Below the pieces are notes generated by a model. That model did no database searches. It was not told the origin of the DNA and was given only the letters and a program-made list of their open reading frames with translations. Shown here piece by piece: positions 3,401-25,421 of a DNA stretch of 64,000 nucleotides; the first letter of the stretch is position 1, and every line of letters begins with the position of its first letter. The stretch lies in contig CAZBAJ010000005.1 of assembly GCA_964490125.1 (NCBI GenBank), forward strand, positions 4,631 to 68,630. The letters run 5' to 3'. The stretch is from an uncultured Candidatus Saccharibacteria bacterium (GTDB lineage Bacteria > Patescibacteriota > WWE3 > UBA101185 > UBA10185). The position numbers and the translations under genes are program-made.

Positions 3401-5042
3401 ACCAAAATTTAATCCTAAATACATTTTTTTGATAATAGGCTTGTTTGTGTTTTACACCGTTGCTGGTGTGGTGGCTAGGGGAGCGTTTTTGGATAAATCA
3501 AAACCGTTTCCCACCTGGTCACACGATTCCAAAAACTCGGTACTCAATGTTTGGACTTCTTGGGATAGCGGTTTTTATTACGATTTAGCTCACAACGGCT
3601 ATCCAAAAATTGAGGAGGATATAAAAGTCGCCTACATTGCCGCCCCGCAAAATAAATGGTTAAAAGTTTATACCGGCGGGGGAATGTTGGGAGAAAATAG
3701 GTTCGCCTTGCCGTCGTCTAACATCTCTGAAAAAGTCAGCAATACAATATTTATTATAGGTAGACCTTTTAATGCTGAACGCATACCAATTTATTATGGC
3801 TATGAGGGTATTCCGTACTGCCTGTTTGATGGTCCGATAGATTACGCCAGGGATGTAGAAGTTGCCAGAGAAGCTTTATCCAATCCAACCGCCTGCGGCG
3901 ATTCCGCTTGTACCAAATCTTATGTAACTTACTACTCCGCGGAAACTAAAAGCGTTTTGTATCAGGAATATTTTATAACCGGCAGTACTGATCCCGTAAA
4001 AACCTATGGGGGAAGTAGGCCTTTAGGTTTAGTGAACAACACCTACATGGGGTTTGGTTGCAACAGCGTTACAACTAAAGACATTGAAACAGCAAAAAGC
4101 CTGGACTACACTCACCAGTTTACTAATATTTCTTTTGGACCGTTATATCCCTGGCTCGTCAAGGGTTTGTCCGTGCTTACAGGCGATGTTGTTCTTGCCG
4201 GACTTTTACTTTCTTTAGTTTTCTGTATTGCATCATCCGTGTTTTTTTACAAACTAGCCCTGCACTTTTTGTCCCAAAAATCTGCCTCTTTAAGTTTGTT
4301 AGCTTACCTACTGCTACCTTTTGCGTTTTTCAACTACGCCTTTTTGCCGGTAGCCCTTTTTAACCTAATGTTTTTTGCCGTTATCTACTTTGCGTTAGCC
4401 AAAAAATTCGTTTGGAGCATTGTTCTTACGCCGCTTTTAGTTTTAACATCCTTTTACGGACTGTTTGTATTAGTTCCTCTTTGGTTTATTTACTTTAATA
4501 AGGAAGAAAGTCCGGTAGTTGGTCGGCAAGTTAAAGAGCCCGCACCCGTTTTTTCTTATACTTTAAACGCCTTAACAGCTCTTTTAGCTCTTGGTATTAA
4601 TGTCGGACTTATTTATTCCGTTACGGGCGATGTTTTTGCTTTAATCAGCTCTAAAATGCCGTGGTGGGGTGGGGCGCAAAGTTTTATCGGTGGATTTGTC
4701 ACATACTTTATGCAACTTGACGCGTCCAAATTTTTAGAAATTGTCTTTTTTGTCGTCATGCTTGGTGGACTAATTGCTTTGTATTACCTAAAAGTTTTTG
4801 AAAGTAAGCTGTTAAAAAATATTGCTTTAGGTTGCGCAATTATGTTTGGATTTATTTGTTTATTAAACGGCGGACTTACAGGCGTGCTTAAATATTACGC
4901 TTTAGGTTTTCCTATGTTTTTATATTATGGACGACTGGGGGAGGGCAATAATCAATTTGTAAAACTGTTGATGTTTTTAGGACCTCTGTTTGGCGCGCTC
5001 TTTATGGTCCTTTGGACTTTAAGCCTGCGCCTGGTGGTTTAA
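3387..5042 (+). CDS. polytopic membrane protein, probable GT-C-like glycosyltransferase
   Basis: 551 aa with an N-terminal anchor helix, an extracytoplasmic domain of about 230 aa (WDSGFYYDLAHNGY motif) and a C-terminal bundle of about 9 TM helices. A 14-nt overlap with the upstream gene indicates an operon. Confidence 0.4.
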   Translation: MEQTKPKFNPKYIFLIIGLFVFYTVAGVVARGAFLDKSKPFPTWSHDSKNSVLNVWTSWDSGFYYDLAHNGYPKIEEDIKVAYIAAPQNKWLKVYTGGGMLGENRFALPSSNISEKVSNTIFIIGRPFNAERIPIYYGYEGIPYCLFDGPIDYARDVEVAREALSNPTACGDSACTKSYVTYYSAETKSVLYQEYFITGSTDPVKTYGGSRPLGLVNNTYMGFGCNSVTTKDIETAKSLDYTHQFTNISFGPLYPWLVKGLSVLTGDVVLAGLLLSLVFCIASSVFFYKLALHFLSQKSASLSLLAYLLLPFAFFNYAFLPVALFNLMFFAVIYFALAKKFVWSIVLTPLLVLTSFYGLFVLVPLWFIYFNKEESPVVGRQVKEPAPVFSYTLNALTALLALGINVGLIYSVTGDVFALISSKMPWWGGAQSFIGGFVTYFMQLDASKFLEIVFFVVMLGGLIALYYLKVFESKLLKNIALGCAIMFGFICLLNGGLTGVLKYYALGFPMFLYYGRLGEGNNQFVKLLMFLGPLFGALFMVLWTLSLRLVV

Positions 5043-5058
5043 TTTATACCCCATAGTA

Positions 5059-5089
5059 TTGGACAAAACCCGTTTTTATTGCTATAATG
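5059..5089 (+). promoter_or_regulatory. sigma70-like promoter (TTGGAC/TGGACA -35, TATAAT -10) preceded by the CCCATAGTATTG motif
   Basis: A -35-like hexamer at 5059-5064 and a perfect TATAAT at 5084-5089. The region lies in native AT-rich sequence immediately upstream of the GC-rich CDS. AAGGAG Shine-Dalgarno at 5142-5147. Confidence 0.4.
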
Positions 5090-5154
5090 GGCATATCTAC
5101 GATTGGTAGACTAGCTCTTTGAATCTCAAAAGTAATATCACAAGGAGAAGTGTC

Positions 5155-6168
5155 ATGAAACGCATGTTGGCTGTTCTGTCCGTTCTTCTCGTCCTGTTGG
5201 GGCTAGTTGCCCAGCAGGTGTCGGCATCTGGGCACATCGTTGTCGAGGGCGGTATCAACCGAGTCGAGGGGTTTGTCCCCTTCTCGCGAGACGGTGTTTA
5301 CACTAGCACTGCGAAACCATACGATGTTGTGGTTACAGTGTATAGAACGATACCGCAAGTACCCGATGTAACGATCCGCATCGAAGGTGAGGCAAGCTGG
5401 GTTCCATGGGTTTCTTCCGGAACGGGAAGTGCTGTATGGGAATACGGCACCTGGCATTTCTGGGGGATCCTTTTTCCCACGGATGGCAAGATCGAGGTTG
5501 GACTGCGCGCGCCTGCGCCCCTGGAGACTAAGCGCATCTCCGTGAATGTACAGGATGGGTTTGGGGCATCAGAGTCGCGGACAGCGTATGTGTCGCCAAT
5601 TGGACAACCGCCGACTGCAACACCGACGGCCACCCCAACGCAGACTGGCGTTCCGCCAACGGTAACGCCGACCAGTACTGCCACTCCGACGGCGACACCC
5701 GCACACACGGCAACGCCAACGGCTGAGCCGTTGATCGTGTTAGAAGGTGGGGTTAACTCACAAGAAGGGTTTACACCCCTTGATCCCACCAAACCGATCA
5801 CTGTCACAACTCGGTTCGCGGCCGACATCATCGCCACGGTGTACAACCGGGGCGGGCCTACTGGTGCGCGCATCACCGTTGATGGGTTCAGCGACTGGAA
5901 AGTTGATGTGAGCGGTACAACCGCAAAGCCCGAGTTCTCGGGGACCTTAGGGGATTGGGGGTCGTGGGACCTCGAAGGCACTTGGTCGGGCGAAGGTCCG
6001 ATAGAGATGGTAATCCATGTCAAGTCCCCACCGCCCTACCGCCCCAATCCCGGGTGGACCGTCAATGTGTCGGCGCGCCCCGCAGGCACAGACGACTGGC
6101 AGGTCCGCCAGGCTGTGATCCAGAACAGTCGCTTCGGCCCCATCTACCTGCCTTTTATCGTTCGATAA
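5155..6168 (+). CDS. GC-rich secreted protein with two duplicated domains joined by a Thr/Pro-rich linker
   Basis: ATG at 5155 follows AAGGAG. Signal peptide MKRMLAVLSVLLVLLGLVAQQVSASG. Two homologous domains of about 140 aa (HIVVEGGINRVEGF... and LIVLEGGVNSQEGF...) are separated by a linker (PPTATPTATPTQTGVPPTVTPTSTATPTATP). High GC begins exactly at the start codon. Confidence 0.6.
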   Translation: MKRMLAVLSVLLVLLGLVAQQVSASGHIVVEGGINRVEGFVPFSRDGVYTSTAKPYDVVVTVYRTIPQVPDVTIRIEGEASWVPWVSSGTGSAVWEYGTWHFWGILFPTDGKIEVGLRAPAPLETKRISVNVQDGFGASESRTAYVSPIGQPPTATPTATPTQTGVPPTVTPTSTATPTATPAHTATPTAEPLIVLEGGVNSQEGFTPLDPTKPITVTTRFAADIIATVYNRGGPTGARITVDGFSDWKVDVSGTTAKPEFSGTLGDWGSWDLEGTWSGEGPIEMVIHVKSPPPYRPNPGWTVNVSARPAGTDDWQVRQAVIQNSRFGPIYLPFIVR

Positions 6169-6288
6169 GATTTAGAGAGCAGGCGCCACGCCCCTCACAG
6201 TCACAAATGTATCCCGCTAATTTGGGGGATTACAGATGATTGAGAGGGCGTGGCGTTTTGCGTATCTGGCAGTATAATCAAACAAGCA

Positions 6289-9200
6289 ATGTTAAAAATT
6301 ATCTCATTTTTTAAAACCAATATTTCAGGAATTGTTTTAGTTGTCATTTGCCTCTATATTTGTCGCGCTAATTACACACCCGGCACTTTTTTAACCGGCT
6401 GGGATACTTTGCATCCGGAGTTTAACTACCGCATTTATTTAAGCCGTATTTTGGACGGGGTGTGGCAGGAACATCAGAGTTTGGGGGCGGTGGCTACTCA
6501 AGCCCACGCTAGCGAGATTCCGCGCATTTTAGTGTTAATGCTTTTGGATGTATTTTTGCCCATGAATATGGTTAGGTATGCTTACGCATTTTTGATGTTA
6601 ATTTTAGGTCCTTTGGGGCTGTACGCGTTTATTAAGTATGTGTTAAGGGGCAGGGGTTTTTGGACGGGGGAAGTGGCGGGTTTTGCCGGCGGGTTGTTTT
6701 ACTTGTTTAATCTTGGGACTTTACAGCATTTTTATGTACCACTGGAGATGTTTTTAACTCACTTTGGACTTTTGGGGTGGTTGTTTTTGACCGTGGTGTG
6801 GTTTTTGCGGGAGGGGAGTAAAAAAGCGCTTGTTTGGTTTTCTGTAGTTACGCTTTTTATGACTTCTCAAGCCCACACCGCAACTTTGTTTTATGCTTTT
6901 TTCCTGTATTTGGTGTTATATCTTCTGACATATTTTGTCGCACACAAATGTAACGGCCAAATTTTTAAAAGAGCCGTTCTTATAATCACAGGAACCCTTG
7001 TTATCAATCTATTTTGGTTTCTGCCAAATGTTTATTTTGCAGTTACTCACGGAAAAGAAATTCAGGAGTCAAAAATCCATTTGTTGTTTTCACAAGAGGC
7101 TTTTTTGCAGAATAAAGAGTTTGGAAACATTAAGGATACCGCTTTACTTAAAAGCTTTTTGTTTAATTGGGGGGAGTATGTGGGGAATAACAGATACGGG
7201 GATTTATTGGATGAGTGGAAGTATCACTTACAACAGCCTTTAGTAATTCCTTTGGGTTATGCTTTTTTTGGTATGGCGGTTCTGGGATTGATTATGGCTG
7301 TTGTTAGGCGGGAGAGGGAACTTGTAGGGATTGGACTAATGTTTTTAGTAGGGTTGTTCTTTATTTTTAATGTTAATCCGCCACTTGGGGGTGTTTTTGT
7401 CTGGTTGCAGGATAATATCCCGCTTTTTAAGGAGGCGTTTAGGTTTCCGTTCACTAAATTTTCCATAGGTTTATTGTTCTGCTATGCAGTATTTTTTTCC
7501 TACTTTGTGTCTGTTGTGGTCAAAGTCTTGGGAGGATGGTCTGCCCATCCGACGAATGGGCTTCCCGCCGTAGGCGGGATCGGGACCCGTTTGGCGGGGG
7601 GCAGACCTCCGACCAGAATACTCGCGTGGTTAGGGTTCGTCGTCCTACTTTTTCTGTCCTTCTACTACTATGCCAAACCCATGTTTACCGGCGGATTAAT
7701 AAGCCCAAGTATGCGCGTTGCCATTCCCCAAAGATACTTTGACATGTTTAGCTATTTTGATACCCAAAAGGAGTACGGGCGGGTACTTAATTTGCCAATC
7801 CATTCCATGTGGGGTTGGGTGTATCACAATTGGGATCCGCAAACTACTCTAGGCTATCAAGGCGCGGGTTTTTTGTGGTTTGGTATAAAACAGCCGTTAA
7901 TTAATAGGGAGTTTGACAGGTGGAATCTTACAAATGAAAAACCTTACATGGAAATTTCCACGGCAATTTATTCCGAGGATGTGGCTACGCTGGAAAAGCT
8001 TTTGGATAAGTACAAAATCCGTTGGTTTTTGGTGGACCAAAGTATTGTAGCGCCAGAGCAGGATGTCAAACAGCTTTTTTATCCCCAAATAGAGTCGCTT
8101 CTTAAGTCGTCCCCAAAAATTAAACTGGAGAAAGACTTTGGGGACGGTTTAGCAGTTTACAAATACTTTCCAGACAAGGACTTTGCCCAAAAGGAGTGGC
8201 TCGATACCTATTATATAGCGGGCGACAGCACTTTTAAGGAGCCAAACGACCCTATTTATAACACCTACGGGAATTACGCGGGAAATGACGAAAAGTCTTA
8301 TCCGTTTGTGGGTATTACCAATTACGACGAAAGCGTAAAGCAGGGTTACATTACCAGCGACGCCAAAAACCTATATTTTAATAATGCTTTGGCTTTTTCT
8401 AATTTGTCTGCCAATATTGCCGGCAATCTGTTTCAATACTTGGTTTTTCTGGACAAGGCGGGGGAGAACTACTTATTAAAATTTGAGCCCGTGGAGAAAT
8501 CGCTTGAACTTGGTTTTTCTTATGATTTAGGCAAACTTGATCCAAACATAGTTGGGGTTGCAATAAATAACTCGACGGTTTTGTCTGTTGTCAAACCGCA
8601 GGTGAGGCAAGTAGTGCTTTTGGATCCAAGTCAGCAAGTAAAAATAAGTCAGCTCTCCCAGTCGTCCAACTTACTTACCGACACAGATTTTTTTAGTGCG
8701 CTGGAAAATTGCAGTTTGGTGGGGGAACAAACCTCGTACTCTTTGGAGCGCGTGGAAAACGGCTTTGTGTTGTTGGCGCAAAATGTGGACGCGTGCGTTA
8801 CCGTAAATTTGCAAAACTATTTGGCCGACGATGCCGAGGGCAAGACGAATGGAGCTACAAGCTTAATCCCGGGCGATTCCTGGAGTGCGGGCAGTATCTA
8901 CCAAGTTACAGTAGGTTTAGGTGAAGGTGCGGTTCTAAACAAGCAGGAAGTTTGCGTTTTTGACGATGTTTCTGGACTTTGCGTTAACCCCCCGCTTGCA
9001 GACGGCAAAACATTTTTTACCCCTCTACCAGGCAGAAATTATAGCTTGCGACTCTTCGCTCGTGGTAAAAAGTCACTTGCTAGAGAGGTTAGGGTAGAGT
9101 ATTCCAATCTAGGACTTTATACGCTAAAGAATGAAAAAGAGTCGGCTTTTAAGCCCAACTTAGTCCTGCAAAAAGACTTGGTCTTAAGCAAGTGGCAATT

Positions 9201-10020
9201 TGAAAAAGACCTTAATTATTCCGGCAATGCGTCCACACTTACCAACTACCCCAGGCTTTGTAATACCGGCGCAACCGCGTTTAATAAGTCCAAAATTTCT
9301 GTTATGGGCAGTTTTGGCACGCCCTTTATTAGGTACGAGTCCCACGGGGAGGCTTTGTGCGACTCTTTTGAATTTCCCATGTTTGACCACGCTAGTGGGG
9401 CGGTGTTGGAGGTTCGTTCAAGAAATTTGGCGGGTATGCCGTTAAGACTTTGTTTAACTAATGAGTATTCAAAGCGGTGCGACTTATATGTGTCGCTCAC
9501 CAAAAATGTTGATTTTACCACGCAGTACTTTTTAGTTCCGCCTATGGGCAATGGTAGGGGCTACACGGTAAATTTTAGCAATTTAATTTTTGGGACTTCT
9601 GTAAGCATTAACGACTTGGAATATGTGGCTTTGGTGCCGTTTCCTTACTACTTGGTACGGGGTATTCACAAGCCACTTACTACTGTAGCTGGGCGACTTT
9701 TGGTTTACAACCAAGCCTTTGAAAACGGCTGGATCGCGTGGTGCGGGTTTAAGCCCTGTCGCGCGGAGCATGTTGTGGTGAATAATTGGGCAAATGGTTG
9801 GGTTTTTCCCTCGGTTCAGGGAGACTCGTCGGTTTCGTCCAGCTCGTCGTCCCAACAAGTCGGTCAACCACCTCAAAATCTATCACCGTCGTCCCCAAAT
9901 GTAATTATTTTCTTTTGGCCACAAGTTTTAGAGTATCTTGGTTTTGGCTTTTTAATCGGCTGGTTTGCTTTAGTCGTCCTGCTCCCAAAACTCCAAAATT
10001 ATAAAAAAAGCTTTGACTGA
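6289..10020 (+). CDS. very large polytopic membrane protein with extracytoplasmic domains (GT-C / YfhO- or AftD-like)
   Basis: About 1240 aa from the ATG at 6289. The track ORF begins at a GTG at 6250 that lies inside an upstream hairpin. About 13 N-terminal TM helices, an internal TM pair, a large central/C-terminal soluble region and a C-terminal anchor helix. Carries an in-frame GC-rich palindromic insertion at about 7537-7610. Confidence 0.5.
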   Translation: MLKIISFFKTNISGIVLVVICLYICRANYTPGTFLTGWDTLHPEFNYRIYLSRILDGVWQEHQSLGAVATQAHASEIPRILVLMLLDVFLPMNMVRYAYAFLMLILGPLGLYAFIKYVLRGRGFWTGEVAGFAGGLFYLFNLGTLQHFYVPLEMFLTHFGLLGWLFLTVVWFLREGSKKALVWFSVVTLFMTSQAHTATLFYAFFLYLVLYLLTYFVAHKCNGQIFKRAVLIITGTLVINLFWFLPNVYFAVTHGKEIQESKIHLLFSQEAFLQNKEFGNIKDTALLKSFLFNWGEYVGNNRYGDLLDEWKYHLQQPLVIPLGYAFFGMAVLGLIMAVVRRERELVGIGLMFLVGLFFIFNVNPPLGGVFVWLQDNIPLFKEAFRFPFTKFSIGLLFCYAVFFSYFVSVVVKVLGGWSAHPTNGLPAVGGIGTRLAGGRPPTRILAWLGFVVLLFLSFYYYAKPMFTGGLISPSMRVAIPQRYFDMFSYFDTQKEYGRVLNLPIHSMWGWVYHNWDPQTTLGYQGAGFLWFGIKQPLINREFDRWNLTNEKPYMEISTAIYSEDVATLEKLLDKYKIRWFLVDQSIVAPEQDVKQLFYPQIESLLKSSPKIKLEKDFGDGLAVYKYFPDKDFAQKEWLDTYYIAGDSTFKEPNDPIYNTYGNYAGNDEKSYPFVGITNYDESVKQGYITSDAKNLYFNNALAFSNLSANIAGNLFQYLVFLDKAGENYLLKFEPVEKSLELGFSYDLGKLDPNIVGVAINNSTVLSVVKPQVRQVVLLDPSQQVKISQLSQSSNLLTDTDFFSALENCSLVGEQTSYSLERVENGFVLLAQNVDACVTVNLQNYLADDAEGKTNGATSLIPGDSWSAGSIYQVTVGLGEGAVLNKQEVCVFDDVSGLCVNPPLADGKTFFTPLPGRNYSLRLFARGKKSLAREVRVEYSNLGLYTLKNEKESAFKPNLVLQKDLVLSKWQFEKDLNYSGNASTLTNYPRLCNTGATAFNKSKISVMGSFGTPFIRYESHGEALCDSFEFPMFDHASGAVLEVRSRNLAGMPLRLCLTNEYSKRCDLYVSLTKNVDFTTQYFLVPPMGNGRGYTVNFSNLIFGTSVSINDLEYVALVPFPYYLVRGIHKPLTTVAGRLLVYNQAFENGWIAWCGFKPCRAEHVVVNNWANGWVFPSVQGDSSVSSSSSSQQVGQPPQNLSPSSPNVIIFFWPQVLEYLGFGFLIGWFALVVLLPKLQNYKKSFD

Positions 10021-10039: not shown

Positions 10040-10258
10040 ATGAAAAAAGCACGCAAAACATTGTACGGAAACATGGTTGCTATTATTCAACCCGCGGAGG
10101 AGGGGGGTTTTTATGCCTACTGTCCTTCTTTACCCGGTTGTGCCAGCCAGGGAGAAACTTATGCTCAAACTGTAGAAAATATTACGGAGGCAATTCAGGG
10201 CGTGCTGTACTATTCTGCCAGGAGCTTAATAAAGTCAAAAGTCTTATGCGCCTTCTGA
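10040..10258 (+). CDS. HicB-like (UPF0150 family) small protein, orphan
   Basis: AIIQPAEEGGFYAYCPSLPGCASQGETYAQTVENITEAIQ matches the HicB/UPF0150 core. No HicA partner seen. The 3' end overlaps the convergent vapC. Confidence 0.4.
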   Translation: MKKARKTLYGNMVAIIQPAEEGGFYAYCPSLPGCASQGETYAQTVENITEAIQGVLYYSARSLIKSKVLCAF

Positions 10259-10641
10259 TAGAACAGGCCGTCTGCAGTTACATAATTACACCCCATCTTT
10301 TTTGCCAACGCTAAGAAGATACAGTCGTACACTGCTGTCTCTCCAAGCACCGATGATAGTTCAAAAGCCTGTTTTAATAACGGTGTGTCTTCTTTTATAT
10401 AAATAAAGTCAGCGTTATCAAATGTCTTAATTATTTCGGTAATTTGGTCGTTGCTTAATATTCCCCATTTAGCTTTTTTAGTTAATGTAGAGATAAACTC
10501 TATTTTTGCTAGATTTGGGCAATAGATCTTTGTTTTAGCATTTTCCAGCTTTTCCAACAGAACCAACGCAAGATGAGAATCGTCTTCTTGTAAGAATATT
10601 TTTACTAGAACACTAGTATCCAGTACGGTCTTAGATGTCAT
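10210..10641 (-). CDS. vapC: PIN-domain ribonuclease toxin VapC
   Basis: N-terminal VLDTSVLV acidic motif. A conserved D/E pattern follows. 143 aa. Confidence 0.7.
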   Translation of the reverse strand: MTSKTVLDTSVLVKIFLQEDDSHLALVLLEKLENAKTKIYCPNLAKIEFISTLTKKAKWGILSNDQITEIIKTFDNADFIYIKEDTPLLKQAFELSSVLGETAVYDCIFLALAKKMGCNYVTADGLFYQKAHKTFDFIKLLAE

Positions 10642-10774
10642 GTCCCCTAAATTTCCTTATAATGGGGACAGAACTTTCAGACACCTTTAAAGTTTTTGCA
10701 TAGGCCACAGCGCCACGCAACACCTTCCAATTTACATCTTTATTTGTAATTCTTTTTCTTGCTACTTTTTCCAT
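10624..10774 (-). CDS. small putative antitoxin (50 aa) overlapping the vapC start
   Basis: My manual translation of the minus strand gives MEKVARKRITNKDVNWKVLRGAVAYAKTLKVSESSVPIIRKFRGHDI. It is below the ORF-track size cutoff. An overlap of about 17 nt with vapC is classic antitoxin-toxin coupling. Confidence 0.35.
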
Positions 10775-10978
10775 GTTTTTGTTTTATCACAAACTATTTT
10801 ATTTGTCTAATTGTCAAGTACGGTGTAGTCACTAATCGTCATGCTCTCTGATTTTCCTTATTATGGGCAAGGAAGCTGGTGTAACGGGCATAGTCGCCAA
10901 ATGGTTTCTTATCATAGCCATCATTTTTTTATTGTCTTTAATTGGTCTTTTCATGACTCACTTTTACCACAAGGTTTG

Positions 10979-11752
10979 TCATTTGCCCAAGATATCTTTG
11001 GCGTAACTTATGGCGTTTTTTGCCATGGGTAGGGTGATATTTTGATACTGGGCGGGAATTTCGTTAACGCTATAGCCTGCTTCAACAAGCCCAAGAATAT
11101 CTGCCACCGTGATACGAGTGCCTTTAATGACGGGTTTCCCAAACCTAATGTTTTGATCCACGCCCACATACTTATTTTGTAGTTTTTGCATAGACGGATT
11201 ATACACCGTTTTCCTAATTTCTTGGACTTTTTTCTGATCCACGGCCAGAGGATTGCCCAGGTAATATTTTGGTTTGTAGTATAGCAGATCCGCTAAGGCC
11301 CTCTCCGGGGTAGCTTGTGAAAATGTCTCCTTGTCCTCTATACCCGCTCTATTTACTAGATACTCTGGTTTTAATTGTTTGCATCTCACTATTTTGTCGC
11401 CATATTTTATGGTTTGACTTTTTTGACCAGCCAAAACAACGGGAGTTATATTTTGGAACATTGCACCCGCCTTGCTTAGTACCGTTTCCAGCGTAATGTA
11501 CGACAGGGGACCGCACAGGGTGCAGGCAACCTCGTAGTCACTAAGCCTGCTAAGCGGGAGTTTGGAGTACACGCCTTTTTTTACTCTATATAACTTGGCG
11601 TCTGCTACATAGCGCTTAATGGTAGTCCAAAGGGTATTTTTGTCTTGAATGTCCCATAAAACCCCTAGATCTTTAGTGGTAAAGATATTTTTAGGCGTTT
11701 CTATTAGTGTTTGTAGTTTTTTAGTCCTGTACATTATTGTACAGGATAACAC
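10979..11752 (-). CDS. AbiEi-like N-terminal domain fused to a C-terminal DUF433 domain
   Basis: The N-terminus (TKKLQTLIETPKNIFTTKDLGVLWDIQDKNTLWTTIKRYVADAKLYRVKKGVY) resembles the AbiEi antitoxin wHTH. The C-terminus (GKPVIKGTRITVADILGLVEAGYSVNEIPAQY) is a DUF433 signature. Confidence 0.5.
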   Translation of the reverse strand: MLSCTIMYRTKKLQTLIETPKNIFTTKDLGVLWDIQDKNTLWTTIKRYVADAKLYRVKKGVYSKLPLSRLSDYEVACTLCGPLSYITLETVLSKAGAMFQNITPVVLAGQKSQTIKYGDKIVRCKQLKPEYLVNRAGIEDKETFSQATPERALADLLYYKPKYYLGNPLAVDQKKVQEIRKTVYNPSMQKLQNKYVGVDQNIRFGKPVIKGTRITVADILGLVEAGYSVNEIPAQYQNITLPMAKNAISYAKDILGK

Positions 11753-11889: not shown

Positions 11890-11918
11890 TTGACATAGTC
11901 TACCGAGTAGGTTACAAT
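11890..11918 (+). promoter_or_regulatory. strong sigma70-like promoter TTGACA-N17-TACAAT with upstream CCTATAGTATTG motif
   Basis: TTGACA at 11890-11895, a 17-nt spacer, TACAAT at 11913-11918. Predicted TSS near 11925. A 5-bp hairpin plus T7 tract follows at 11931-11952. Confidence 0.5.
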
Positions 11919-11983
11919 GATAATTGTTTGAGGCTGGTATACAGCCTTTTTTTGTAAATTCCACCTGCCTAAAAAAATATATT

Positions 11984-13456
11984 ATGCCGTTTGGTAAAAA
12001 TAGTGCCAATAAAAACGCAGGTTTGCAAACAAAACGCGTAAAATTACCCGTTGCGTTTTTGGTAGTCGTGCTTGCCGTGCTTGAAACAGTAAGCTTTGCC
12101 ATGGTTTTTAAGACTCACAAAACACATTTAGATACCCTTACCAGTTTAATGGGCGACAAGTTGGAGTCGGATGACAGAGAACAGATCAAGGGTGAAACTG
12201 ACGAGCAACAGGAGCAAGGATATACACAGAACGACCCGGGTTCGTGGTTTTGGCGCAATTCGCAAAGTCAAACAAAACTAGCTGCCAATAAAGATAATAA
12301 CAATAGCGAGGACAAAAAAGAGGGGAGTAATAAAAACAAAAAGGAGCCTAAGGGTAAAAAGAAGGTTGTACCTCCGGTCAATCCGGCAAATCAACTTCCC
12401 AGTGTGACAATAGACCTTGGTTTAGAGGGAAAAAGCTTTAAATACGGAGAAACTGTGTCAATAGCTGTCACTTCTACCGACTTTGATGGGGTGGTGCGGG
12501 AGCTTAGCCTTGTTGTTAACGACATTGTTAATGAGACTGTTGTAACATCGTCCCACATTTTTAACCTAGAATCCCTGCCGTTAGGTGTGTATAGGATTTA
12601 TGCTAAAGCTCTTGACGACAAGGGGGGAGAGGGAGTTTCCAGGACGATTACGATTTATGTTGACCCGCTTAACGCGTTTGACCCGGATATTTCTGAACCT
12701 ATTTCTGAGCCCATTTCGGATAGTATTTCCTCTGTTATTTCAGATACCGTGTCGGCAATAGTGTCCGAACCCATTTCTGAGGCAATTTCGGAGGCTCTAA
12801 GTACCGATGTTTCCAGTATTATTAGCGACATTATTTCTACACCTGTTTCCGATACCATATCATCGACAATGTCCGAAGCCATTAGCGATGTTGTCTCTAC
12901 GCCATTGTCGGATGAAATAAGTGACACGGTTTCAGCAGTGATTTCGGATGTCCTGAGTTCGGATATTTCCAACATTGTAAGCGATGTAGTTTCCACTCCC
13001 ATTTCGGATACCATATCAACGATAGTGTCCGACGCTATCAGCAATGTTGTCTCCACGCCATTGTCGGATGTAATAAGCGATGCGATCTCATCGGTAATTT
13101 CGGGTGATATATCCCAAACCATATCGTCCATACTTTCTAGCGACCTTTCTAGTGCGATTAGTGCGCCAATATCGCAAATCCTATCCCAAGATCTTTCGGC
13201 AGGCATATCGGACGCCGTATCCGATTTAATTTCCGATGTCCTAAGTACCGAAATATCCGATGTTTTGAGTGACGCGGTATCGACAGCTCTATCTGATACT
13301 GTCAGCGGGGTCATTTCTCAAGTTGTAAGTAGTCCTATTTCTGTTGTAATCAGCGATACACTGTCGACTCCTGTTTCGGGAACCTTATCGTCAGTAATCT
13401 CTGATGCTACTAGCGAGTCAGTTTCCGACTTTATTTCTACATTGTTAAGCCATTAA
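11984..13456 (+). CDS. membrane-anchored Ser-periodic tetrapeptide-repeat protein, (S-x-x-I/V/L) about 58 units
   Basis: ATG at 11984 (MPFGKNSANK...) followed by a signal-anchor helix. The track start at TTG 11924 coincides with the predicted TSS. Lys/Glu-rich spacer, a beta-rich domain of about 90 aa, then an uninterrupted array SEPISEAISEALSTDVSSIISDIISTPVSDTIS... with Ser every 4th and an aliphatic residue every 4th position, running to the C-terminus. Confidence 0.7.
   Translation: MPFGKNSANKNAGLQTKRVKLPVAFLVVVLAVLETVSFAMVFKTHKTHLDTLTSLMGDKLESDDREQIKGETDEQQEQGYTQNDPGSWFWRNSQSQTKLAANKDNNNSEDKKEGSNKNKKEPKGKKKVVPPVNPANQLPSVTIDLGLEGKSFKYGETVSIAVTSTDFDGVVRELSLVVNDIVNETVVTSSHIFNLESLPLGVYRIYAKALDDKGGEGVSRTITIYVDPLNAFDPDISEPISEPISDSISSVISDTVSAIVSEPISEAISEALSTDVSSIISDIISTPVSDTISSTMSEAISDVVSTPLSDEISDTVSAVISDVLSSDISNIVSDVVSTPISDTISTIVSDAISNVVSTPLSDVISDAISSVISGDISQTISSILSSDLSSAISAPISQILSQDLSAGISDAVSDLISDVLSTEISDVLSDAVSTALSDTVSGVISQVVSSPISVVISDTLSTPVSGTLSSVISDATSESVSDFISTLLSH
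12686..13447 (+). repeat. degenerate 12-nt (4-codon) tandem repeat inside the CDS
   Basis: Repeating units of the form tcNgaNNNNatN/tcNNNNgtN across about 760 nt. Codons vary between units, so this is not recent slippage, but the S-x-x-aliphatic period is strict. The antisense ORF 12655-13314 is an artefact of this repeat. Confidence 0.8.
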
Positions 13457-13488
13457 CTTGGCGTTACTATATTGTTAGATACTAATTT

Positions 13489-15336
13489 ATGTCATCAAAA
13501 ACAAACATCTTGGATAAGGCTTTGTGGGCGGTTTGGATTTTAATTTGCGTCGGTCAGGCGGTTGTTTTTAGTGGCGCCTACATAAGTGTCTACGATCTTC
13601 CAAAGATCCTAGTTTTGTGCGGGGGTATTTGCGGGCTTTGTTTTTTACTGCTTGTTAAGCGTCAAACAAAGGTAAGTATCGCGTTACTTTACACTCTGGG
13701 TATTTTTATTGCTCTAGTCGCCTTTAATATGGTTTTTTCCACCAATAGGTACAGGTCGTTTTGGGGCGATAAAGTCTACAACGACAGTTTTTTAGCCTTT
13801 ATTCTCTATTTTGTATTGCTAGCTTTGGTGTCGTTTGACCTACTTAAGACAAAGACCATTCTCGCTGGAATAAACTTATTAGGACTTCTTGTGGCAATTT
13901 CTGGTCTAATTCACGCTTATTTACTTTACATTCTTAAGCTTGACATTGTTTCGTACGACGGGCGTATTACTGGAACAATCGGGCAGGCAAATATCCTTGG
14001 GGGAATATTAGTTGCCGTTTTGCCGGTATCTATTTTGCTGTTTACCCGGTCAACCAGGCTTTTACACAAGATTTCTTATGCCGTTAGCGCCTTAATTATT
14101 TTTGCTTGTTTGCTGGTTTCCATGTCCAGGGGCGCTTTTTTGGCTTTAGGAGTGTTGGCTCTGGTGGAAATTGTTGTTAGGTTGAAAAGGGCTAAGTGGC
14201 GATTGGTGTTTTTAATGCTTGTTACAGCGTTTATTGCCGGTTTATTTTTTGTTCCAAAGGATTTAATAGCAAATTCAAAGTCGCCCTACCTTATTAGACG
14301 CTTTTTTTCTTTTAGAGATGGAAATAAGCTTTCTGACATTAGGTTTGAGATTTGGAAAAACTCCATTCCCGCGATTGCTAAAAAACCCTTAACAGGGTGG
14401 GGAAACGCAACTTTTCAAAATGTCTACCAGATGCACATAAATCCCACAAACGCCAATCAGACCCTTTTTAAGGAGGTGGAGACATCTCACAACATTGTCA
14501 TAGACGCCCTTTTGGAGTGGGGAATTGTGGCGTTTCTAGTTGTTTTGGTAGGAGTAGTCGTACTTGCTAACAAGTCGTCCGCTCCAAAACTGGTCAAATA
14601 CGGCTTATTGGCGGTGTTCATAAGGAGTCTTATTAACATAAATTCCGGTATAGTTTGGTTCTTATTTTTTGTCTATGTGGGTTTGTTGGTGCGGGACTTT
14701 AGGGGCAGGCAGTTTGACTTAGTGGGGAAGCGTTTGTTGGCGGTTTGGGTGACACTTTTTGCCCTTTCTGTGGCGATTTTTTGGTTGTTTATTAATTTTG
14801 GTCGGGCAGAGGTCTATGAAAAAAAGGCTCTAAAAGAGGGCGACGCCAGTAAGTCGGCGGAATACTACAAAACCGCTTTAAGCCATAATCCGTATAAAGA
14901 ATCGTTGTGGGGCAGTTATTTAGCGTTGTTGCTCTGGAAAGGGGATTTAACCCAGTTTGAACAGACGCTAAAGACGGTCGACACGCATTTTAATGACTAC
15001 CGTGGTAATTTTTACGCCGGGCTTTACTACATGCGACTAGGGGAGACCCACAAGGCTGTTGATCGCTTTAATACCGCCTATAAGCTAAACGCCAGGGATC
15101 CAAAAACTACCCACTATTTGGGACAATTGTATTATTCTCTGGGCGACCATTCTAGGGCGGAACAGATGTTCTTGTACACTGTCAACCTGGATGTTAGGAA
15201 CTTCAACGACGATTATATTTACCTTTGCGACATTGAGATAAGGCGGGGGGATTACAAGAAAGCCAGGAAGTACATGGAACAAGCCCCGGATTCGTCTAGG
15301 AAAGACTATTACGACAACCTCCTTAGGGGGCATTAG
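13489..15336 (+). CDS. Wzy_C-family (O-antigen ligase / PglL-like O-oligosaccharyltransferase-like) membrane protein with C-terminal TPR repeats
   Basis: About 12 TM helices with a periplasmic loop containing an ...SMSRGAFLALGV... Wzy_C-type motif. The C-terminal 180 aa form TPR-like helical repeats. Lies immediately downstream of the Ser-repeat protein. Confidence 0.55.
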   Translation: MSSKTNILDKALWAVWILICVGQAVVFSGAYISVYDLPKILVLCGGICGLCFLLLVKRQTKVSIALLYTLGIFIALVAFNMVFSTNRYRSFWGDKVYNDSFLAFILYFVLLALVSFDLLKTKTILAGINLLGLLVAISGLIHAYLLYILKLDIVSYDGRITGTIGQANILGGILVAVLPVSILLFTRSTRLLHKISYAVSALIIFACLLVSMSRGAFLALGVLALVEIVVRLKRAKWRLVFLMLVTAFIAGLFFVPKDLIANSKSPYLIRRFFSFRDGNKLSDIRFEIWKNSIPAIAKKPLTGWGNATFQNVYQMHINPTNANQTLFKEVETSHNIVIDALLEWGIVAFLVVLVGVVVLANKSSAPKLVKYGLLAVFIRSLININSGIVWFLFFVYVGLLVRDFRGRQFDLVGKRLLAVWVTLFALSVAIFWLFINFGRAEVYEKKALKEGDASKSAEYYKTALSHNPYKESLWGSYLALLLWKGDLTQFEQTLKTVDTHFNDYRGNFYAGLYYMRLGETHKAVDRFNTAYKLNARDPKTTHYLGQLYYSLGDHSRAEQMFLYTVNLDVRNFNDDYIYLCDIEIRRGDYKKARKYMEQAPDSSRKDYYDNLLRGH

Positions 15337-15364
15337 CAGGTCAGGTTTGCTTAAGCCCATAGTA

Positions 15365-15393
15365 TTGACAGAACTAGAAAAGTAGGCTACAAT
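15365..15393 (+). promoter_or_regulatory. strong sigma70-like promoter TTGACA-N17-TACAAT with upstream CCCATAGTATTG motif
   Basis: TTGACA at 15365-15370, a 17-nt spacer ending AGTAGGC, TACAAT at 15388-15393. Shares the extended AGTAGGYTACAAT and CCYATAGTATTGACA with the promoter at 11890. Confidence 0.5.
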
Positions 15394-15448
15394 TAGCCTT
15401 GTTAGCAGTTAGCTAAGTATTAAATTATCCTGCCAAATAAAGGTAAAT

Positions 15449-16060
15449 ATGACTAAAAGCGTTAACTACAAGTTAATAGGTGCCTTAGTAGTAGCCAGTT
15501 CCGTAGGTGTGTTAAGTGGTGGAGTAGCCTATGCCGGTTGTACTTCTAACTACGGTGGTGGTCAAACCTGTATCTACAACAAAAACTTTGACATTGAGAA
15601 AAAGGTTAGAAAGTTAGGGGACGACTCCTGGAAGGATAAAGTAACCGGAGTTGACGAGGGTGAAGTTGTAGAATTTAAGATAAAGGTAAAAAATGAAGGG
15701 GAAGTTAGTGTAGATGACATGAAAATGTCTGATAAACTTCCTAAAGAGATGGAAAGAGTTGGCGGAGACGGTTTGACCGAATATTGGGACGACTTTGATG
15801 CTGGCGAGACCAAAACCTTTATTATAAAGGCTAAGGTTAAAGACAGCGAGTACGATAGAAAAAACTTTGAGAAGTGTGTGGTCAACAAAGCCGAGGTTTT
15901 GTACGACGGTGATGATGAGGCTTCTGATACCGCTACTGTGTGTTACAGCGACGGTGCTCCTACCGAGTTACCTAAAACTGGTGGAAGCTCCTTGTTTTAC
16001 GGGTTTCTTGGTTTAGGTCTTACAGCTTTTGGCGCTTTTGCTAAAAAGCTAAAAAAGTAA
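15449..16060 (+). CDS. LPXTG-type cell-surface protein (sortase substrate)
   Basis: N-terminal signal peptide. C-terminal sorting signal LPKTGG followed by a hydrophobic stretch and a KKLKK tail. The central acidic beta-rich domain resembles DUF11. Confidence 0.65.
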   Translation: MTKSVNYKLIGALVVASSVGVLSGGVAYAGCTSNYGGGQTCIYNKNFDIEKKVRKLGDDSWKDKVTGVDEGEVVEFKIKVKNEGEVSVDDMKMSDKLPKEMERVGGDGLTEYWDDFDAGETKTFIIKAKVKDSEYDRKNFEKCVVNKAEVLYDGDDEASDTATVCYSDGAPTELPKTGGSSLFYGFLGLGLTAFGAFAKKLKK

Positions 16061-16304: not shown

Positions 16305-17012
16305 ATGACAAATATTTTAGCCAACAGAAAACTATCGACTGGGATTTTAGGAGGCATAGCATTTGTATTTGCTGTAGTTTTATTCTCCAAGTTATTCTTA
16401 AAGACAAATAACATCGGAGGATTTGCTGTTTGGGTTAATTCTTTTGGGAAAACTATTACCAATAAATTGGGTTTGGGGGATAGTACATCGACTTTTGGTA
16501 AAAATTCAGGCAAAGAGGCAAATCCATCCGTTTTTAAAGAAGTCGCAAAACCTGTTTATTTGTCGCCCAAAACTATTACTTTTAAGGATAAAACTTTAGA
16601 TGTGGAGGAAATTGGCGTGGAACAAGGCGGAATACTAGGTGTGCCTTCCGGTTGGTATACTGCAGGTTGGTATAAGGACGGGGCAAAAGCAGGAGAGGAA
16701 GGCAATGTAATTATTGACGGTCATTACGATACTAATACCGGCGCGCCCGGCGCGTTTTGGGAGTTGAAAGATCTACAAGTTGGTGATAAAGTGTCGTTAA
16801 CGGACTTATTAGGTCGCAGATTTGATTATAAAGTCAAAGAAAAGTCGTCAATAGCCATTACCGATCCCGAAAGAGCCAAAGTTTTTGCAAGTTCGCAAGC
16901 TAAAGAGTTAACTTTAATTACTTGCGGAGGCGTTTGGGACTATGCCAGTGGAACTTACAACAAGCGACTTGTAATTAAAGCGGAATTTGATAAGATGGAA
17001 AAAAGTTGGTAG
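16305..17012 (+). CDS. sortase (transpeptidase)
   Basis: N-terminal TM anchor. Catalytic His region (IDGHYDT). TLxTC motif (LTLITCGG). Downstream Arg. Confidence 0.75.
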   Translation: MTNILANRKLSTGILGGIAFVFAVVLFSKLFLKTNNIGGFAVWVNSFGKTITNKLGLGDSTSTFGKNSGKEANPSVFKEVAKPVYLSPKTITFKDKTLDVEEIGVEQGGILGVPSGWYTAGWYKDGAKAGEEGNVIIDGHYDTNTGAPGAFWELKDLQVGDKVSLTDLLGRRFDYKVKEKSSIAITDPERAKVFASSQAKELTLITCGGVWDYASGTYNKRLVIKAEFDKMEKSW

Positions 17013-21334: not shown

Positions 21335-22051
21335 ATGACAAATGAAGAAATTACTCTCCACGCCTTAGAGTTTGCCAAAAAGAATAAACTCCGCATAGCC
21401 AGAGAATTGACCGATCCAAGTAAATATAAGCCTACAGACCATCCCGTCTCTGTTTTTATGGCAGGTTCTCCTGGGGCGGGTAAGACGGAATTTTCTAAAA
21501 ATCTTGCTAAAGATTTACATAAAGGTGAAGGCATCAATGTTGTTCGGATTGACGGGGATGATTTAAGACCATATATGCCGGGTTATACAGGAAGTAACTC
21601 TCACCTATTCCAGGGTGCCGTTTCTTTAATTGTTGAGAAGATGCAAGATTTAGTATTACATACAGGGCAAAACTTTATTCTGGATGGAACTTTCTCTAGT
21701 TATCGTAAAGCTACCGAAAACATCAATCGCTCCTTGTCTAAGGGCAGGGTTGTTTCAGTTTTTTACTTGTATCAAAGACCTGAAATAGCTTGGAAGTTTA
21801 CCCAGGCGCGTGAAAAAGCAGAAGGTAGAAACATTCCCAAAACAGCCTTTATTAGTCAATTTTCTGAGGCTAGAGAAACAATTGAGAACCTAATTTTGAA
21901 TTATGGTGGTCTTATTAAGATAACTCTTGTGGCTAAAGACTTTGAGAATAAAACAATCGATCTTGTTGAAATTGCGGACAATGCGACAAAAATTGACGGT
22001 GTTACTTTTGCTCGTTATAATGAGCGAGAATTAGAAAGTTTATTAAAATGA
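21335..22051 (+). CDS. zeta-toxin-like P-loop kinase family protein
   Basis: Walker A (FMAGSPGAGKTEF) with the zeta/AAA_33-like layout. ATGA overlap with the next small ORF. Confidence 0.55.
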   Translation: MTNEEITLHALEFAKKNKLRIARELTDPSKYKPTDHPVSVFMAGSPGAGKTEFSKNLAKDLHKGEGINVVRIDGDDLRPYMPGYTGSNSHLFQGAVSLIVEKMQDLVLHTGQNFILDGTFSSYRKATENINRSLSKGRVVSVFYLYQRPEIAWKFTQAREKAEGRNIPKTAFISQFSEARETIENLILNYGGLIKITLVAKDFENKTIDLVEIADNATKIDGVTFARYNERELESLLK

Positions 22052-23446: not shown

Positions 23447-24742
23447 ATGGACGCCGACTCCAAACTAGTGGAGCTTTCTGCCTTAAAATACCGTTACATT
23501 CACCCCTTAATAAATGAATATCCCGTGGAAAAAGATGTGGTTTTTACCATGCGCGGTCCAAGGAGGGTGGGCAAGACCACGCTTATTAAGTTAATTATCA
23601 AAAAACTACTTGACCAAAAAATTCCCAGAAAAAACCTTTTTTATCTTCCGTGCGACAGGATTGAGCATTTTAACGAGCTTTATACTGCAGTAAGGAGTTA
23701 TGTCGATAAACAAAGAGTTTCCGCTAGCGGTAGAATTTACATCTTTTTAGATGAAGTGTCATATGTAAAAGAATGGCAAAGAGCTGTAAAATCGCTGTGG
23801 GATGACGACGTGCTTAAAAACTGCACATTGCTAATAACAGGGTCAAACGCCGTCGACTTAAAAGTGTCGTCCGAAAGATTACCCGGTAGAACTGGCAAAT
23901 ATTTTAATAGCGAAAAACTATTTTTACCGTTAGATTTTTTTGACTTCTACAAACTACTAAACCCCGATTGGACGGGGGAGTTTGAACCCAAAAATCTACC
24001 CAAGTTTAAAAAATATTTGGACGACTTTATGTTGGTAGGGGGTTTTCCACAGGTTATTAACGAGTACTACACCAATGGCTTTATAGCGTCGGAAACCTAT
24101 GAAACTTATACCAAGTGGGTTGACGGGGATGTTCACAAAAACGGTAAGTCTACGGAAAGTGCCTACCGACTGTTTAAAGAGTTGGACAAAACGCTTACTA
24201 GTAGGGTAAGTTACACTAATTTAGCTAAGGACACGCTTTTTGCGTCCCAACAGAGTGTGCAGGATTATGTGGAGCTTTTTGACCTCACGTATGTTTGTTT
24301 TAAGTGCGATTACTTGCTATTAGAGTCCAGGAAAGTCGATCCTAAAAAAAATAAAAAGTTTTACTTTGTCGACCCGTTTGTTCATAACGCGCTTTTGGCT
24401 AAGCAGGATGGATTTTTGGACGACGCTTTTAATTATTCACGCAAGCTGTTGGCAGGGGAGAATGTTGCTTCCACTAGGTTTGAGGAGGTGGTGGGAAGTT
24501 TGTTAAAAAGACGGTTTACACGCATTGATTACGGTATGTTAGCGGGCGACGCGTTGGAAGTAGATTTTGTGGGCTTTGACCACGGTAAATATAGCCTTTT
24601 TGAATGTAAATACGGGAAAACAGGTTTGCAAAACTACTTAAACTATAAAAAACTATTTGACTCTTTTGGGGGTTTAAAGATTTTGGTTCCCGATATTGCC
24701 GAGGAAGGGGAAACCTCGTTTTTTGACCTTTTTAAGGGTTGA
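23447..24742 (+). CDS. AAA-family ATPase (AAA_14 + DUF4143-type)
   Basis: Start at ATG 23447, 9 nt after GGAGGAG. Walker A (GPRRVGKTTLIKLI). Walker B (IFLDEVSY). C-terminal DUF4143-like region. Confidence 0.65.
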   Translation: MDADSKLVELSALKYRYIHPLINEYPVEKDVVFTMRGPRRVGKTTLIKLIIKKLLDQKIPRKNLFYLPCDRIEHFNELYTAVRSYVDKQRVSASGRIYIFLDEVSYVKEWQRAVKSLWDDDVLKNCTLLITGSNAVDLKVSSERLPGRTGKYFNSEKLFLPLDFFDFYKLLNPDWTGEFEPKNLPKFKKYLDDFMLVGGFPQVINEYYTNGFIASETYETYTKWVDGDVHKNGKSTESAYRLFKELDKTLTSRVSYTNLAKDTLFASQQSVQDYVELFDLTYVCFKCDYLLLESRKVDPKKNKKFYFVDPFVHNALLAKQDGFLDDAFNYSRKLLAGENVASTRFEEVVGSLLKRRFTRIDYGMLAGDALEVDFVGFDHGKYSLFECKYGKTGLQNYLNYKKLFDSFGGLKILVPDIAEEGETSFFDLFKG

Positions 24743-25331
24743 TTAGCGTCCGTTCTCCAGTATTTATATCTATTGCGTAGGGATATATTTTTGGCTCTAT
24801 TTCTAAGTTAATTTCTTTAAGTTTTGGACCATCCTTGGATTCTTTTATATACTGTTCCATCATAAGTTCGGAGTCCCGTCTTGCTTGCTCTGATTTTCTT
24901 ATAGCATCTTCTGGTGCAATGTACATGGGTGTGGTGTATAGGTTAGGATAGTTTTGGTTAATCTTTTTGCTTTGAGACTCTGGTAAATTTCTGTATAGGA
25001 CAAGAATAGCGACTTCTGCTACGGTAATAAACAGGATAAGGAACACCGCAGTATAAGCAAGTATTTTCAGTCCCACCAGACCTCTACGGGTGACAAAGAA
25101 GTATAGAGGAACAAAAAACACCGCTAGAAAATAAATTAGAACAGTGGTTAACGCGGATACTGCCCACAAAGTGCTTGTAAACGCAAAATTTGTAGTGCTA
25201 CTACCTCTGTAAAACAGGCCGTTGTTTATGGGCATTACTCTTTGGAAAAAGACATAAAGTAAGAAAGATAAAGAGAAGACAAGAAGAGCTTGAGTTAGAC
25301 CTAGCAACCAATTGGGTACTATTTTATTCAT
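24732..25331 (-). CDS. hypothetical membrane protein
   Basis: Start at internal ATG (MNKIVPNWLLG...). 3-4 predicted TM helices. Acidic C-terminus. Confidence 0.45.
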   Translation of the reverse strand: MNKIVPNWLLGLTQALLVFSLSFLLYVFFQRVMPINNGLFYRGSSTTNFAFTSTLWAVSALTTVLIYFLAVFFVPLYFFVTRRGLVGLKILAYTAVFLILFITVAEVAILVLYRNLPESQSKKINQNYPNLYTTPMYIAPEDAIRKSEQARRDSELMMEQYIKESKDGPKLKEINLEIEPKIYPYAIDINTGERTLINP

Positions 25332-25421
25332 GGGGGAATTATACCATCGATTGGGTGACGGCGAAAAACCCCGTCGCACGACGGGGTTTTTAAAGCGTCT
25401 GTTGGATTAATTAATCCAAGC

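Follow-up and report, generated by a model that had tools for sequence, protein, structure and literature searches.

We describe a two-gene operon from an uncultured Candidatus Saccharibacteria bacterium whose first gene (11984-13456, plus strand) encodes a candidate surface protein ending in a long, strictly periodic serine array and whose second gene (13489-15336, plus strand) encodes a polytopic Wzy_C enzyme with C-terminal tetratricopeptide repeats (TPRs). The operon lies in a 64,000-nt stretch of contig CAZBAJ010000005.1 (positions 4,631-68,630 of its forward strand; assembly GCA_964490125.1), here called the window, and all coordinates are those of the window unless another locus is named. 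We give about an even chance to the reading that the two products are an O-glycosylated Ser-array substrate and the O-oligosaccharyltransferase that modifies it. A preliminary description of the window, made from the sequence alone, had drawn attention to this locus and placed it in a host resembling the candidate phyla radiation (CPR); the closest genome to the window is indeed an uncultured Candidatus Saccharibacteria metagenome-assembled genome (MAG).

The serine array

The repeat protein has 490 amino acids. Its sole hydrophobic segment (12035-12118, residues 18-45), a signal anchor or signal peptide, contains a helix predicted by AlphaFold2 at residues 24-40 and is kept in the orthologs. 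A linker rich in Lys, Glu and Asn joins this N-terminal anchor to a single beta-rich immunoglobulin (Ig)-like domain of about 90 residues (12398-12664, residues 139-227). Against Big_7 (PF17957) the domain scores 15.2 bits (E=0.035), under the Pfam cutoff. A profile of the repeat family reaches more than 1000 proteins at E<=1e-10 through the Ig segment, and those sampled are Big_7 proteins at 1e-54 to 1e-117; judged by these profile matches, the domain appears to be a divergent Big_7 domain.

From residue 236 to the C-terminus (12689-13453) the protein consists of 63 unbroken [ILV]-S-x-x tetrapeptides followed by LSH, so that translation and register count give 64 successive period-4 Ser residues with zero indels across the 63 units. 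The preliminary description had put the uninterrupted array at about 58 units; its periodicity stands and its count is superseded. Position 2 is Ser in 63 of 63 units, and position 1 is Ile in 32, Val in 16, Leu in 13 and Met and Thr in one each. Position 3 is most often Asp (22), then Ser (10), Thr (10) and Glu (7), plus others, while position 4 is spread over Val (14), Pro (10), Ala (10), Thr (9), Ile (7) and others. The array is acidic, with 36 Asp or Glu residues (14%) and no basic residues (no Lys or Arg).

At the DNA level the repeat is degenerate: mean unit-to-unit identity is 44%, all six Ser codons are in use, and TRF reports 2-copy fragments only. No other period-4 Ser run of at least 10 occurs in the window in any frame. 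The array recurs in two independent assemblies built from other sequencing runs (L016, 1523 of 1533 nt identical and of equal length; L017, tail identical), so it is not an assembly artefact, and the observation is real and far beyond chance. The locus is present in the samples of SRR8925812, SRR11845627 and JGI 3300013137. Neither Pfam nor NCBIfam holds a family matching the array, the best NCBIfam score being 21 bits to 'serine-rich protein' against a cutoff of 650, in line with the preliminary description, which did not recognise the repeat as a described family. The protein ends in ...STLLSH and lacks an LPXTG sorting signal.

AlphaFold2, run on a 3-sequence alignment, gave a predicted local distance difference test score (pLDDT) of 33 throughout, with array helices that carry no confidence; for that reason no fold is assigned to the array. 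We rejected a coiled coil from the known range of coiled-coil periods, outside which 4.0 falls, and from the abundance of Ser, Val, Ile, Thr, Pro and Gly in the array.

Two further features of the gene may be recorded here. The stretch of the linker at 12260-12390 (residues ~93-135) is strongly basic, KKEGSNKNKKEPKGKKK, and is kept in the orthologs, and the C-terminal array is purely acidic; such charge polarity might serve binding to wall polyanions or self-association. Long antisense open reading frames (ORFs) overlie the array, at 12655-13314 (minus strand) in the window, at 2-280 and 395-577 (minus) in L009 and at 363-722 (minus) in L011, and automatic calling has reported such ORFs as genes in one metagenome contig. 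We rejected the one at 12655-13314 as a real gene: it is the sense frame that runs on from the conserved anchor and Ig domain, and in that frame the Ser-codon changes are synonymous. These ORFs are by-products of 12-nt periodic composition, not genes.

Relatives and selection

Word-indexed searches of 5.8 billion clusters gave two true homologs of the repeat protein. P0001 has 51 units, and its identity is 79% by BLASTP local alignment and 94% in the multiple alignment. P0002, with 30 units and 47% identity, belongs to an uncultured Candidatus Saccharibacteria MAG. A 630-aa protein of the same architecture with 96 units (L007, 195-2087) was missed by these searches and was reached through the upstream neighbourhood of a 57%-identical enzyme ortholog. 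The same kind of search found four to five true relatives of the Wzy_C-TPR enzyme, and a genome scan with the enzyme alignment found one locus.

An exhaustive profile search over 1.84 billion representatives showed the SxxPhi array in P0001 and P0002 only among the best 150 matches listed; it was dominated by the Big_7 domain, so that arrays without the Ig domain could rank below those matches. A first metagenome scan, which picked K-rich low-complexity patterns, found no relatives, and a second returned the lineages already known together with L015, a 30%-identical match to the Ig domain without a period-4 Ser run. One further candidate, P0003, was rejected as a homolog, its resemblance being compositional and periodic only. 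This 399-aa protein, from a Logan contig outside the window, has AT-hook-like RGRPRK motifs and a period-4 array of about 35 (A/S)-(N/D)-P-(I/V) units. The repeat family is therefore very small: among billions of proteins it is represented by three or four lineages that are close relatives.

Across four lineages, in runs of 30, 51, 64 and 96 units, the Ser at position 2 is never replaced. Between the window and L001, 26 of 30 Ser codons differ, including 9 switches between the TCN and AGY codon boxes; between the window and L007, 54 of 64 differ, including 16 such switches. Since Ser is never replaced though most of its codons differ between lineages, selection acts on the protein, as the preliminary description had proposed from the degeneracy of the repeat. 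About 70% of units show changes between lineages at positions 3 and 4; Thr is frequent at both and never found at position 2. Array length changes by whole units, P0001 having a clean 13-unit deletion. Taken together, the alignments argue strongly for strong purifying selection on the Ser and the aliphatic residue before it, alongside expansion and contraction of the array.

Selection of this kind bears on whether the Ser residues are modified at all. The array could be an unmodified acidic spacer or fibre, disordered or with a regular period of 4, which would extend the Ig domain outward or tether it; the adjacency of its gene to the enzyme gene would then be an inherited gene order in a narrow clade. 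Free variation in unit number (30-96), the acidic composition free of basic residues and the origin of all loci from close relatives with general synteny would suit such a spacer, and modification of the array is itself putative. We nonetheless hold this to be improbable. A spacer has no need of an invariant Ser, with Thr, Ala and Gly all kept out of one position in some 240 units whose neighbouring positions drift. Neither the make-up of the array (Ser, Val, Ile, Thr, Pro, Gly) nor its period of 4.0 appears to match a standard coiled-coil or polyproline II periodicity, and the structure of the operon is conserved where its upstream flank is not.

The Wzy_C-TPR enzyme

The second gene, 32 nt downstream of the first, encodes 615 amino acids. 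Its Wzy_C domain (14086-14544, residues 200-352) matches PF04932 at E=8.9e-23 (81.2 bits, cutoff 31.7), which places it in the Wzy_C or WaaL-PglL superfamily. A profile of the membrane part, compared with all PDB sequences, has a single match, the WaaL O-antigen ligase of Cupriavidus metallidurans (7TPG/7TPJ; E=1.5e-14), and phmmer with the full-length enzyme against PDB sequences returns TPR matches only. The family assignment made earlier, a Wzy_C protein with TPRs related to WaaL, is thereby borne out.

The catalytic residues are in place. R214 (SMSRGA), R285 (DIRFEIW) and H334 (SHN-x9-G, with N335 and G345) align with tRGA, vRLKIW and aHN of 7TPG, and are the counterparts of catalytic-loop residues that are required in E. 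coli WaaL (R215, R288, H338) and conserved in PglL (R224, R298, H349) (PMC3643930). The protein has a WaaL-like polytopic fold, in which the catalytic loop is followed by three transmembrane (TM) helices as in WaaL. The chain then continues through a basic loop, RDFRGRQFDLVGKR, and a 13th TM helix into about five TPRs (14827-15291; pLDDT 80-94). By homology with WaaL topology the TPR domain would lie on the outer face of the membrane, beside the catalytic loop.

The operon

A promoter-like site of the form TTGACA-17-TACAAT (11890-11918, plus strand; 11 of 12 matches) stands ahead of the repeat gene, and its block TAGTATTGACA and -10 hexamer are conserved in L001 and L007. Between this site and the start codon lies a terminator-like hairpin, GAGGCTG-GTATA-CAGCCTT followed by a run of seven T (11930-11955, plus strand), about 12 nt past the conserved -10 hexamer and 30 nt ahead of the start codon. 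Both L001 (~8735-8765) and L007 (~90-125) retain the stem AAGGCT/AGCCTT and the T-run. The hairpin could act in attenuation or stabilise the 5' end; that it is a known riboswitch or other RNA family was rejected, as there is no Rfam match and the folding energy is unexceptional. Gene callers translate the hairpin as an N-terminal extension (MFEAGLQPF...).

No promoter-like site lies between the repeat gene and the enzyme gene, and the 32-nt gap holds no terminator-like site. The gap measures 28-33 nt in all lineages, and the survey of relatives that the preliminary description had proposed finds the two genes adjacent in all four, all of them close relatives (Wzy_C identity of the enzyme 98, 72 and 57%). 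By gene order and spacing, each lineage that has one of the genes has both, as a conserved operon. The upstream flank varies, with PIN and DUF433 genes in the window and AbiEii pairs in the P0002 lineage, which argues that the gene pair is kept together as a unit. These toxin-antitoxin-type genes lie directly upstream, at 10210-11752 (minus strand) in the window and, as two AbiEii genes and a partner, at 6535-8601 in L001.

A candidate substrate-transferase pair

Saccharibacteria are monoderm and have no outer membrane, lipopolysaccharide (LPS) or lipid A-core. An apparently active WaaL-type enzyme therefore needs another acceptor, and the nearest candidate is the co-transcribed exported protein with its 30-96 invariant Ser hydroxyls; LPS genes are absent from the 64-kb window. 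PglL enzymes prefer Ser over Thr about 500-fold (PMC8423747), and the absence of Thr from array position 2 fits that preference. Substrate genes next to enzyme genes are also familiar: 21 of 31 PglL homologs are encoded beside a substrate gene (PMC3643930), and the genes for TfpO, TfpM and PglS adjoin theirs (PMC12645811). That the array is an O-glycosylation substrate, as suggested before, is a reasonable proposal.

The pair might work as follows. The first product would be exported and either anchored in the membrane or secreted through its N-terminal hydrophobic segment, displaying in its C-terminal 120-390 residues an acidic array with an invariant Ser at each fourth residue, after an aliphatic one. 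The second would be a 13-TM Wzy_C enzyme with its catalytic loop and TPR domain outside the cytoplasmic membrane, where the TPR superhelix would grip the extended repeat while the enzyme moved glycan from an undecaprenyl-pyrophosphate carrier to the Ser hydroxyls of the co-expressed array. The outcome would be a densely O-glycosylated, mucin-like or bottlebrush surface filament beyond the Big_7-like Ig domain, which in an epibiont would probably serve surface shielding or host contact.

A bolder form of this proposal sees in the array an undescribed class of bacterial glycoprotein polymer. Here a processive enzyme, guided by its TPRs, would load every Ser to give a bottlebrush with one glycan per four residues, its length tuned by unit gain and loss, as a Saccharibacteria coat or host-contact structure. 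We regard this extension as doubtful.

Strict invariance of Ser points to chemistry at the hydroxyl, and the group added could in principle be other than a glycan: a phosphate, a phosphoglycerol or teichoic-acid-like unit or an acyl ester, placed by the Wzy_C-TPR enzyme, whose donor could be non-glycan, or by an unlinked enzyme. This we think very unlikely. Characterised Wzy_C enzymes (WaaL, PglL, TfpO, WsaB/WsfB) transfer glycans from undecaprenyl-pyrophosphate carriers (PMC3643930, PMC12645811, PMC2943079), and genes for kinases or other transferases are absent beside the operon.

One distant locus extends the comparison. In an unrelated high-GC organism (L010, 1809-9275) a 28%-identical Wzy_C-TPR gene lies between two candidate surface-protein genes. 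The upstream one, which overlaps the enzyme gene by 23 nt, encodes a small TM-anchored protein with a low-complexity stretch of Ala, Gly, Ser and Pro; the downstream one encodes a surface protein of more than 1540 aa with about 20 tandem repeats bearing a YYDD motif. This arrangement hints that Wzy_C-TPR genes may generally travel with exported protein substrates.

Several points weigh against pairing the array with the enzyme as substrate and O-oligosaccharyltransferase. Known PglL sites favour Ala or Pro beside the Ser, and the residue at -1 in the array is Ile, Val or Leu. Adjacency of the two genes is weakly above background because the four lineages are close relatives with syntenic downstream housekeeping genes, and co-occurrence statistics are weak because the whole family comes from one narrow clade; the distant comparison is a single locus, L010. 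Genes for assembly of a lipid-linked glycan (an initiating phosphoglycosyltransferase, cytoplasmic glycosyltransferases and a flippase) are absent from the 64-kb window. On the structural side, the AlphaFold prediction for the array is unusable (pLDDT 33), confidence is low across the TM part of the enzyme model, and an outside placement of the TPRs hinges on counting the short helices at residues 367-383 and 387-402 as separate TM helices. Ligase, protein O-oligosaccharyltransferase and polymerase roles of Wzy_C proteins cannot be separated by sequence. Finally, PglL_A (PF15864) and Wzy_C_2 (PF11846), which alongside Wzy_C define the PglL/PglS class (PMC12645811, PMC3643930), are absent from the enzyme, Wzy_C being the sole match of the three even at E<=10; by domain content it lies within the WaaL/PglL superfamily and outside the PglL/PglS class.

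An upstream GT-C glycosyltransferase

The region 1277-10020 had been described as encoding three huge GT-C or PMT-like membrane glycosyltransferases, which proved right for one of them. The protein at 1277-3400 (plus strand), 8.6 kb upstream of the operon, is a clear PMT_2/ArnT-like GT-C enzyme (PMT_2, 4.8e-15; ArnT 5EZM, 1.8e-4) and a possible alternative enzyme for O-glycosylation of the Ser residues. The GT-C match of 3387-5042 is under threshold at 16.6 bits, and 6250-10020 is polytopic with no match to a family or a solved structure.

Actinobacterial Pmt adds single sugars from polyprenyl-phosphate donors during export. An enzyme such as that at 1277-3400 could O-glycosylate the array in the same way, with the Wzy_C-TPR enzyme merely co-transcribed and ligating or polymerising a wall polysaccharide or glycolipid. 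A large polytopic protein is encoded upstream in the P0002 lineage too, the Wzy_C family includes ligases and polymerases with non-protein acceptors, and the genes for assembling an undecaprenyl-pyrophosphate-linked glycan are absent beside the operon, all of which would suit a single-sugar route. We consider this route unlikely, since variable toxin-antitoxin inserts and opposite-strand genes lie between the GT-C genes and the operon, with no co-transcription. Moreover, PMT-type enzymes are established to take Thr as well as Ser, which leaves the exclusion of Thr at position 2 unexplained, and such a route does not account for the Wzy_C-TPR gene lying so tightly, 28-33 nt, behind the repeat gene.

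Comparison with known systems

The closest precedent for the enzyme is WsfB of Paenibacillus alvei, an S-layer protein O-oligosaccharyltransferase of a monoderm that has Wzy_C and a C-terminal TPR motif (PMC2943079). The enzyme shares this order, Wzy_C and then C-terminal TPRs, with WsfB as that protein is described in the same source. WsfB and WsaB of Geobacillus stearothermophilus resemble the pair described here in their monoderm hosts, Wzy_C domain and abundant exported surface-protein acceptor, with TPRs in WsfB. They differ in that their acceptor is a folded S-layer protein, modified at a few Tyr residues by WsfB and at Ser/Thr by WsaB, whereas the putative acceptor here is a Ser array of 30-96 units, and in that WsfB sits in the slg glycan-biosynthesis locus, whereas glycan-biosynthesis genes are absent near the operon.

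PglL, PglS, TfpO (PilO) and TfpM likewise have Wzy_C with conserved Arg, Arg and His, an adjoining substrate gene in the same orientation (pilin or ComP) and a preference for Ser. They are Gram-negative enzymes that modify one or few sites per substrate, on type IV pilins or general periplasmic proteins. None has such a TPR and 13th-TM extension as found here, and PglL and PglS carry PglL_A and Wzy_C_2, unlike our enzyme. A type IV pilin gene adjacent to the enzyme gene marks the TfpO/PilO type; the neighbour here encodes a TM-anchored Ig-domain protein with a repeat array. WaaL of C. metallidurans has 12 TM helices, no TPRs and a lipid A-core acceptor.

Among the group IV pilins of Pseudomonas aeruginosa, the TfpW-PilA pair is similar in layout. 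TfpW, a polytopic glycosyltransferase, ends in a periplasmic TPR domain, and its gene lies directly downstream of that for its multiply O-glycosylated substrate. It is of the GT-C fold (DDX motif, ArnT-like), not Wzy_C, with polyprenyl-P-D-Araf as donor and a pilin as substrate.

Among Ser-periodic proteins, SD-repeat proteins are glycosylated by SdgA and SdgB. The serine-rich repeat (SRR) adhesins (GspB, Fap1, SraP) and SD-repeat proteins (Clf/Sdr) of Firmicutes likewise carry long Ser-periodic arrays of degenerate sequence, which form heavily O-glycosylated stalks in these monoderms (PMC6973325). Their period is 2 (S-x or S-D) and they end in LPXTG, in contrast to a period of 4 with an obligatory aliphatic residue, an N-terminal anchor and no LPXTG here. 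They are glycosylated in the cytoplasm by GT-A/GT-B enzymes, serine-rich repeat proteins (SRRPs) then being exported by the accessory Sec (aSec) system, whereas the putative enzyme here would act outside the membrane. SRRPs are recognised by a dipeptide S-x repeat, LPXTG and a locus with aSec (SecA2/SecY2/Asp) and GtfA/B genes; no such genes occur in the window. The array differs from SRRP and SD-repeat adhesins in its period, its anchor, its route of export and the probable site of its glycosylation.

The locus had been called of a kind not described for CPR-like bacteria. WsfB takes that novelty from the enzyme architecture and leaves it to the substrate: on these comparisons the architecture of the enzyme and the placing of substrate beside enzyme are of known kinds, and the strictly period-4 aliphatic-Ser array is new.

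Neighbouring genes

Downstream of the operon, a second promoter-like site of the TTGACA-17-TACAAT type (15365-15393, plus strand; 11 of 12 matches) precedes a gene for a single-domain CLIPPER/DUF11 protein of 203 aa (15449-16060, plus strand), which is a separate transcription unit and at most a possible member of the system. As the preliminary description recognised, this is an LPXTG protein: it has LPKTG, a hydrophobic tail and KKLKK, the marks of a sortase substrate that the repeat protein lacks. It contains two Cys pairs. CLIPPER domains have predicted intramolecular isopeptide bonds (PMC12617251), and the protein could be a minimal wall-anchored or pilus-like Saccharibacteria subunit. The sortase announced at 16305-17012 (plus strand) is likewise confirmed (4.3e-21; closest to class F) and presumably anchors the LPKTG protein. 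In relatives the CLIPPER-LPKTG gene, sortase, rho, M23 peptidase and obg follow in synteny; linkage of the LPXTG gene and sortase says little on function because the whole downstream block is syntenic anyway.

A reported second Wzy_C-TPR gene (25422-27701, minus strand; 759 aa) has good TPRs; its Wzy_C match is under threshold (20.1 bits, cutoff 31.7), and the catalytic Arg, Arg and His are replaced by Gly, Lys and Ala. This divergent paralog may be a non-catalytic or differently acting partner. Relatives retain it: in L002 and L003 the gene codes for 738 aa. The next gene downstream of it (24732-25379, minus strand) encodes a small multi-TM protein with no family match.

The picture of a self-contained module was not upheld, given the absence of lipid-linked glycan assembly genes in 64 kb, the single clear GT-C among the three upstream proteins, the LPXTG gene's own promoter-like site and the paralog's lack of catalytic residues. 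The rest of the window holds housekeeping genes (leuS, argS, comEA/comEC, dprA and a Mg-chelatase-like ATPase) and many toxin-antitoxin genes. These include a zeta toxin (21335-22051) and PIN genes (42403-42849, 44942-45346 and 47546-48001); their density is unusually high.

Significance

The cell surface is the means by which Saccharibacteria and other CPR epibionts find and hold their hosts, and hardly any work has addressed protein glycosylation in Saccharibacteria or the CPR at large (PMC11623550). The literature searched contained no paper connecting Saccharibacteria or Patescibacteria with Wzy_C enzymes or with any characterised glycosylation of proteins. Significance of the finding is limited by the very narrow distribution of the repeat family. 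Within it, the operon offers a compact candidate pair of substrate and enzyme, with a clean sequon of up to 96 Ser residues in the same register and a WaaL-like core joined to TPRs. If the pair is active, it would extend O-oligosaccharyltransferase biology to the CPR and add a new Ser-repeat architecture beside SRRP and SD repeats, and it could be useful in glycoengineering as a scaffold for high-density glycan display. Should the bottlebrush-polymer proposal also hold, no protein O-oligosaccharyltransferase system would have been defined in the CPR/Patescibacteria before this one.

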